This document shows, piece by piece, positions 1,838-2,043 of a stretch of 16,723 bases of DNA. A program made the position numbers and the translations under genes. The DNA lies in the IMG/VR virus record IMGVR_UViG_2660238346_000008; one strand, 5' to 3'. Below the pieces are notes generated by a model. It did no database searches, was not told the DNA's origin, and saw only the letters and a program-made list of their open reading frames with translations. The stretch is from a virus. Lineage: Duplodnaviria > Heunggongvirae > Uroviricota > Caudoviricetes. The stretch's first letter is position 1. Each line of letters begins with the position of its first letter.

Positions 1838-2043
1838 GATTTAATCCTTATTTAAACTGAACTATTCATGCATAGAGATGTCATGAACAAAACTCAAAAT
1901 ATTGTAAATTAAATTACGGGTTCAATTTTTATTTTGTTTCAAAATGTAAAAAAACAACTTTGATAGCACTTTATGTCAAGACAAAACAAAAATAACAAGC
2001 AAGCAAATTAATAAACGATGCTTTTAGGTTTTTTCTCAAAAAC
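1838..2043 (-). promoter_or_regulatory. AT-rich promoter/regulatory region of the porin moron, with OmpR-box-like motifs
   Basis: 206-bp AT-rich intergenic gap between the M stop and porin start. Minus-strand TTTACATTTTGAAACAAAAT (plus 1931-1950) resembles the ompC C1 OmpR site as I remember it (TTTACATTTTGAAACATCTA); a TTGACA hexamer lies at about 1974-1979 (minus strand). Confidence 0.4.

Follow-up and report, generated by a model that had tools for sequence, protein, structure and literature searches.

How is a porin gene that lies among the tail genes of a prophage controlled, and by host or phage signals? The gene in question sits in a stretch of 16,723 nucleotides from a Caudoviricetes virus (IMG/VR record IMGVR_UViG_2660238346_000008; the whole stretch is called the window here). 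A first-pass annotation, made from the letters alone, had drawn attention to an OmpR-box-like sequence upstream of this gene and had suggested that the porin is plugged into host EnvZ/OmpR osmoregulation rather than phage late control. Here, we consider in turn what the porin insertion is, how well the box holds up as an OmpR site, what kind of promoter it may belong to, and where the intervening DNA could have come from.

The porin gene and its genomic setting

The porin gene (positions 674..1837, minus strand) encodes 387 aa of the general porin family (Pfam Porin_1, E 1e-140), and the RefSeq name for its product is 'porin OmpC'. Identity is 56% to K-12 OmpC, 67% to OmpD-like chromosomal porins, and 68-72% to the NmpC/Lc-type phage porins, which also have a related signal peptide (the one compared is MKKLTVAISAVAASVLMAMSAQA). 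By these comparisons, the porin is a member of the NmpC/Lc phage group and not an OmpC orthologue.

The upstream border of the insertion is tail gene M, for a minor tail protein (2044..2385, minus strand; Pfam Phage_min_tail, E 7e-33; RefSeq), and the downstream border is the 5' part of tail gene L (1..476, minus strand; Pfam Phage_tail_L, E 6e-55; RefSeq). The terminator scan found an intrinsic terminator, GGGGCGCGTCTGCGCCCC plus a T-run (477..500, minus strand; placed by the scan at 500..483), with 7 G-C pairs and a loop of 4. It ends 0-1 nt before the ATG of L (476), so late transcription can reach L, K, I, and J only by passing it, presumably by antitermination. In an identical prophage of E. 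coli G1/2 (NZ_CP060083), the RefSeq gene order runs from tape measure through a tail protein and 'porin OmpC' to minor tail protein L and on to J. GC content is 28% in the spacer upstream of the porin gene, 39-48% in the porin gene itself, and 51-65% in the tail genes.

Lambdoid and HK97-like phages carry morons, which are promoter-gene-terminator insertions between conserved late genes. Since the insertion lies between the adjacent genes M and L, deviates in GC content, ends in a terminator, and contains conserved blocks of a predicted promoter, the porin is, to judge from its sequence, a classic moron between M and L of a lambdoid prophage, the promoter being a predicted one. It shares with known phage morons its position, its lower GC content, the predicted promoter, the strong terminator, and a patchy occurrence (93 of 5426 complete E. 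coli genomes have the M-L porin locus, according to blastn with the 206-bp spacer), and nothing essential differs. What is specific to the window is a promoter with a putative site for a host two-component system.

The insertion occurs behind two different types of M gene. At the related locus L110 (1938-2267 and 2268-2500), a porin insertion with the same promoter blocks follows a different, lambda-like M gene of 109 aa, suggesting that the insertion moved or recombined between distinct tail modules while the M-L position was kept. The locus was absent from all deposited phage genomes, in which only distant nmpC/ompD-type matches were found (in P7, JL22, and phi456). Our literature search found no description of a prophage porin between tail genes, and no binding or expression report for the M-L porin locus.

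An OmpR-type box upstream of the porin

Read directly, the minus strand from 1950 to 1931 is TTTACATTTTGAAACAAAAT, a 20-bp OmpR-type box 113 nt upstream of the porin gene that is composed of two tandem 10-bp half-sites, TTTACATTTT and GAAACAAAAT. In a count matrix of 24 curated OmpR sites, C15 is present in 23, A16 in 22, and G11 in 21; compared with these sites, the box has all of the key positions (AC at 4-5 and 14-15, G at 11). The resemblance to the ompC C1 site had been noted in the first-pass annotation, and the K-12 sequence confirms the reference site given there: the ompC upstream region contains TTGCATTTACATTTTGAAACATCTATAGCGAT and reads TTTACATTTTGAAACATCTA, followed by the C2 and C3 sequences. 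Box and K-12 C1 are identical at the first 16 of 16 positions and at 16/20 overall, and the box has the same orientation relative to the porin gene as C1 has to ompC. The C1 16-mer occurs a single time in the window, while allowing up to 3 mismatches gives 2 matches versus 0.09 expected.

The box was also scored with a position weight matrix built from 20 published or curated OmpR sites, with duplicates counted once and C1 left out. With window composition as background, it was the top match on both strands of the 16.7-kb window at 19.9 bits (17.6 bits with a uniform background), and the next independent match reached 10.6 bits. This score exceeds those of 17 of the 20 training sites, which range from 8.9 to 23.9 bits, as well as that of the left-out C1 (16.9 bits). 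The matrix is specific: 470 kb of enterobacterial chromosomal DNA from the surroundings of porin genes contains only 19 sites of at least 15 bits, and nearly all of them lie ~160-200 bp upstream of porin genes; only 7 sites in the same DNA score at least 17.6 bits, 6 of them at the porin-promoter position.

When the spacer's own composition (75% A+T) is taken as background, the score of the box drops to 10.98 bits, a value that dinucleotide-preserving shuffles of the 206-bp spacer attain in 165 of 5000 cases (3.3%, p ~0.03). Because A/T-rich shuffled sequence does so this often, the matrix score alone is suggestive, not decisive. The box is the best match in the window, but its score is only modestly unusual for a spacer of this composition.

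The further TTTAC/GAAAC-type half-sites that had been described beyond the box were not confirmed. No second same-strand site of at least 9 bits adjoins the box in any of the four spacer classes described below, and the downstream TTGAAC is better read as a -35 hexamer. The spacer therefore has one site only and lacks a C1-C2-C3-type array, in which three sites adjoin one another.

After the box itself, the C1 16-mer is best matched by TTTACCTTTTGCAACA (1076-1095, plus strand), with 2 mismatches and ~11 bits with the OmpR matrix. It lies within the porin coding sequence, in antisense, and probably arose by chance.

Conservation among related loci

The spacers of related loci, taken from viral contigs and from E. 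coli genomes, can be sorted into four classes: that of the window, L096/L103, L003/L107, and L110. Spacers are 52-75% identical between classes, with 38% of alignment columns invariant. Conservation is highest in four 10-bp blocks, namely the first half-site, TTTACATT(T/C)T, the AATATTTT block, and two leader blocks, and the first half-site is invariant at 9/10 positions over the four classes. The second half-site takes the forms GAAACA, GTTACA/GTTACG, GTTGCA, and CTTACA across the classes; C15 is present in every class and A16 in all forms except GTTACG, and, with the same exception, the forms are also found in curated OmpR sites (C1/F2, F1/csgD, omrA, and nmpC, respectively). The sequence TTTACAAT is restricted to the window's spacer class.

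Each class has exactly one site, scoring 14.3-21.0 bits, on the gene's strand and 110-118 nt from the ATG. The distance from the box to ATTGAA is exactly 5 bp, with ATTGAA invariant and no indels in any class. We regard this comparative conservation as stronger evidence for an OmpR-type site than the matrix score. The L103 version of the box, TTTACATTTTGTTACAT, has 16 of the 17 bases of the OmpR ChIP-exo repeat motif GTTACATTTTGTTACAT (PMC5438342).

CRP-like sites of the form GATC..TCACA are present in nmpC and OmpD-like promoters. A comparable CRP site was considered for the porin spacers and rejected for the window class, which is at background (9/16); only the L003 class has a fair match. 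In L003 (4020-4045) and L107, which represent the 72% class of the porin locus, this CRP-like site, AAGTGTGAAACTTGTCTCTTGT, matches at 12/16 positions and is centred ~10 bp before the box.

Predicted promoter and leader

A -35 hexamer, TTGAAC (1920..1925, minus strand), is predicted 5 bp after the box and reads TTGAAT in other classes. The predicted -10 hexamer, TATTTT (1901..1896), is part of the AATATTTT block (1896..1903, minus strand), which is invariant at 9/10 positions. The two hexamers are separated by 18 bp, or by 16 bp in the L110 class. This predicted core promoter is weak, with 4/6 matches to consensus in each hexamer (8/12 in all), and a promoter consensus scan of the spacer called none; such weakness would fit an activator-dependent promoter. 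Transcription is predicted to start at ~1888-1890, which would place the box at about -61 to -42.

Two other promoter assignments were rejected. The combination ATGACA-N17-TTCAGT, which would put the box at -100, has a poor -10, and the stretch is 5' UTR by homology with the nmpC, ompC, and ompF leaders. The TTGAAA within the box, read as a -35 and paired with a -10 of CGTAAT, lacks conservation in L110.

At the start of the predicted 5' UTR (1863..1889, minus strand), a small conserved hairpin (GUUCAUGA...UCAUGAAU) is predicted from conserved blocks and RNAalifold. The leader blocks GTTCATGACA and TGAATAGTTC are invariant at 9/10 positions across classes, and RNAalifold folds the region into a stem of 8 pairs, where all changes are one-sided wobble changes and compensatory pairs are absent. 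Such a hairpin could stabilise the mRNA from its 5' end or serve as the target of an sRNA. A Shine-Dalgarno sequence, AAGGA (1845..1849, minus strand), precedes the ATG by 8-12 nt and does not vary between classes.

Proposed regulation and its alternatives

On balance, we favor the reading that the box is a site for an OmpR-family response regulator, most probably OmpR, and that it forms the upstream part of a sigma-70 promoter belonging to the porin insertion itself, with an activating role. We infer that OmpR-P would bind at this single promoter-proximal site, recruit RNA polymerase to the predicted start, and thereby activate transcription. The site would be a single 20-bp tandem element 5 bp before a weak TTGAAC, in the position of F3 or C3, but with a sequence of the high-affinity C1/F1 type. 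The gap between the proximal site and the -35 is 5 bp in the window (to the predicted hexamer), 5 bp at ompF F3, and 4 bp at ompC C3, where we take the hexamers to be TTGGAT/GAGAAT for ompC and TAGCGA/AAAGAT for ompF; the ompC hexamers are consistent with how far C1 lies from the inferred start. This gap geometry, together with the weak core promoter, favors activation by OmpR-P. In work from Mizuno's laboratory, one OmpR site positioned beside the ompC -35 was reportedly able to activate.

The porin would be made in the lysogen under host EnvZ/OmpR control. To our knowledge, a single site sets this promoter apart from every well-studied OmpR-activated porin promoter. Graded osmoregulation of ompC is produced by the hierarchical C1-C2-C3 array; where only one strong site exists, low levels of OmpR-P would probably suffice to fill it, and we would expect dependence on OmpR with little grading by osmolarity here, not a steep switch. 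The proposal of host EnvZ/OmpR osmoregulation is thus supported as far as a conserved, correctly oriented, high-scoring OmpR-type site goes, but not with respect to the array. Nor does the second half of the proposal, that host control replaces phage late control, follow from the site: the porin is co-oriented between M and L in the late operon, so late read-through is expected beside any promoter of its own, and during lytic growth the porin would also be transcribed by read-through of the late tail operon.

OmpR could bind the box and yet repress the porin, which would then be made mainly at low OmpR-P or only from late transcripts. We judge this fairly unlikely, although it is a serious alternative because repression by OmpR is reported for nmpC, both in a list of OmpR-repressed genes (PMC5438342) and in a description of nmpC as CRP-activated and repressed by OmpR, IHF, and MprA (PMC11677980); moreover, the box aligns with nmpC CTTACATCTTGAAATAATCA at 14/20 positions. 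However, the different site-to-hexamer geometry argues against a simple transfer of nmpC repression to the window. The curated OmpR site at nmpC-type loci reaches 2 bp into the -35, TTGAAA, whereas the window box ends 5 bp upstream of its predicted -35, which is the activating geometry of F3 and C3. That spacing is strictly kept in all classes, and the weak core promoter would need an activator. Use of the box by another regulator of the OmpR/PhoB family, instead of or together with OmpR, seems quite improbable; the candidates, which recognise tandem boxes very like those of OmpR, are RstA (PhoPQ/acid/Mg signal) and CpxR (envelope stress). The CpxR motif is GTAAA-N5-GTAAA, and TTTAC-N5-(G/T)TTAC is the reverse of this repeat. 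For RstA, the SELEX box TACATNTNGTTACA (PMC4117788) is matched exactly by L103-class TACATTTTGTTACA and, at its 12 specified positions less two, by window TACATTTTGAAACA, and OmpR and RstA have common targets through similar sequences (PMC7315122). Nonetheless, the second half-site of the window, GAAACA, has the OmpR-typical form of C1, F2, and C2 and departs from the TACA repeat of RstA, and the scores that the OmpR matrix gives for every class fall in the range of proven OmpR sites.

The box might instead serve no regulator today, either as a relic of an ancestral porin promoter or as an A/T-rich UP-like element or H-NS target, with the porin expressed from the late operon only. Several observations would suit such a reading, among them the A+T content of the spacer, the share of shuffles that reach the matrix score, the co-orientation of the porin in the late operon, and a consensus scan that passes no promoter. 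The pattern of conservation and the fixed spacing nevertheless make it very unlikely: the first half-site ranks among the most conserved blocks of a spacer in which little more than a third of alignment columns is invariant, the second half-site keeps its key positions while neighbouring bases vary, and the distances to the -35 and -10 blocks do not change. In addition, the insertion keeps its own terminator, which would be pointless for a purely late gene.

Origin of the spacer

Upstream of the box is a conserved block (1954..1982) that reads GTCTTGACATAAAGTGCTATCAAAG on the minus strand, with TCTT..A.AAAGTG invariant across classes. On the plus strand, 1961-1983 is TTGATAGCACTTTATGTCAAGAC and resembles the micF marbox, a Rob/MarA/SoxS site that in K-12 reads TTGACAGCACTGAATGTCAAAAC; the K-12 segment is the micF marbox of the Rob-DNA crystal structure (PMC8279559). 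For the sequence GTTTTGTCTTGACATAAAGTGCTATCAAA upstream of the box, 25/29 positions agree with the K-12 ompC-micF spacer in its micF-proximal part, a score reached by 0 of 2000 shuffles, and with respect to the C1-like box the marbox-like segment keeps the order and orientation found in the host. The marbox consensus is matched at 12/14 positions in the window class only, while the other classes keep (G/A)CAC-N7-YAAGA. In Lelliottia ompC, AGTGCTATCAAAAAGTTCCCCTTTATTTACAAATTGAAACA is collinear with window AGTGCTATCAAAGTTGTTTTTTTACATTTTGAAACA, and the C1 flank resembles the flank of the box, AGTGCTATCAAAGTT. TGACATC...AATAGTTCA is common to the leaders of nmpC and of the window porin. In light of these short patches of porin-promoter sequence, we interpret the box as a homologue of the OmpR sites in porin promoters and not as a chance A/T-rich match.

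An origin of the whole spacer from the E. coli ompC promoter was rejected: in blastn searches of 5426 E. coli genomes, only prophage M-L loci matched the spacer, never a chromosomal ompC promoter. A micF-like sRNA was likewise rejected, as no micF match was found with Rfam in window positions 1-3000 (E up to 1) and no -10 hexamer was found at the micF-equivalent distance from the marbox-like element. It is possible, though we consider it unlikely, that the region was assembled from host control DNA of the ompC-micF type, with a C1-type site moved to an activating position and a marbox-like element next to it, the two together wiring the gene into two host envelope-stress regulons. If so, the lysogen would make the phage porin under host-chosen conditions, and the porin could alter permeability or replace OmpC/OmpF as phage or colicin receptors, a form of superinfection exclusion.

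Relation to known porin promoters

The window resembles K-12 ompC in the first 16 bp of C1, the orientation of the site, a C3/F3-like gap to the predicted -35, and a marbox-like segment in the same order. Unlike ompC, it has one site in place of three contiguous ones, its C1-type sequence is predicted to lie at about -61..-42 and not at -100..-81, it lacks micF, its spacer has no blastn-level similarity to that of ompC, and its protein is only 56% identical.

The nmpC/lc genes of the lambdoid phages DLP12 and PA-2 provide the closest protein relatives. They too are phage-borne porin morons with their own promoter, a related signal peptide, and the shared leader motifs, and their published OmpR site, GAAACCAAAACTTACATCTT, occupies the homologous place, ~100 nt upstream of the ATG. 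In contrast to these, the window porin lies in the M-L tail module and not at the nmpC/lc locus, the spacers cannot be aligned by blastn, and ~13 bp are inserted between the ATTGA and AATATTT blocks. The window class also lacks a convincing CRP site, and its box stands clear of the -35, whereas the overlapping nmpC site is reported to be repressive. Host two-component control of a phage-borne porin is known for nmpC; the M-L porin would probably add a new location and a different promoter geometry, but no new mechanism.

If OmpR drives this promoter, host envelope signalling would govern, in the lysogen, the expression of a prophage-borne porin present in ~2% of complete E. coli genomes, many of them Shiga-toxin-producing. 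Outer-membrane permeability, antibiotic uptake, and the display of phage or colicin receptors could change as a result, and the locus would illustrate clearly how a moron can bring or keep a site for a host two-component system. Such a case extends what nmpC/lc and the OmpR-controlled porins already show and opens no new question.

Among the chromosomal sequences compared, the ompC-micF spacer of L027 (CP169086.1, labelled Enterobacter hormaechei B17-3; 350 nt upstream of ompC) agrees with its E. coli K-12 counterpart at every base across 353 nt. Such agreement is unexpected for another genus and may reflect a mislabelled record, contamination, or recent transfer.
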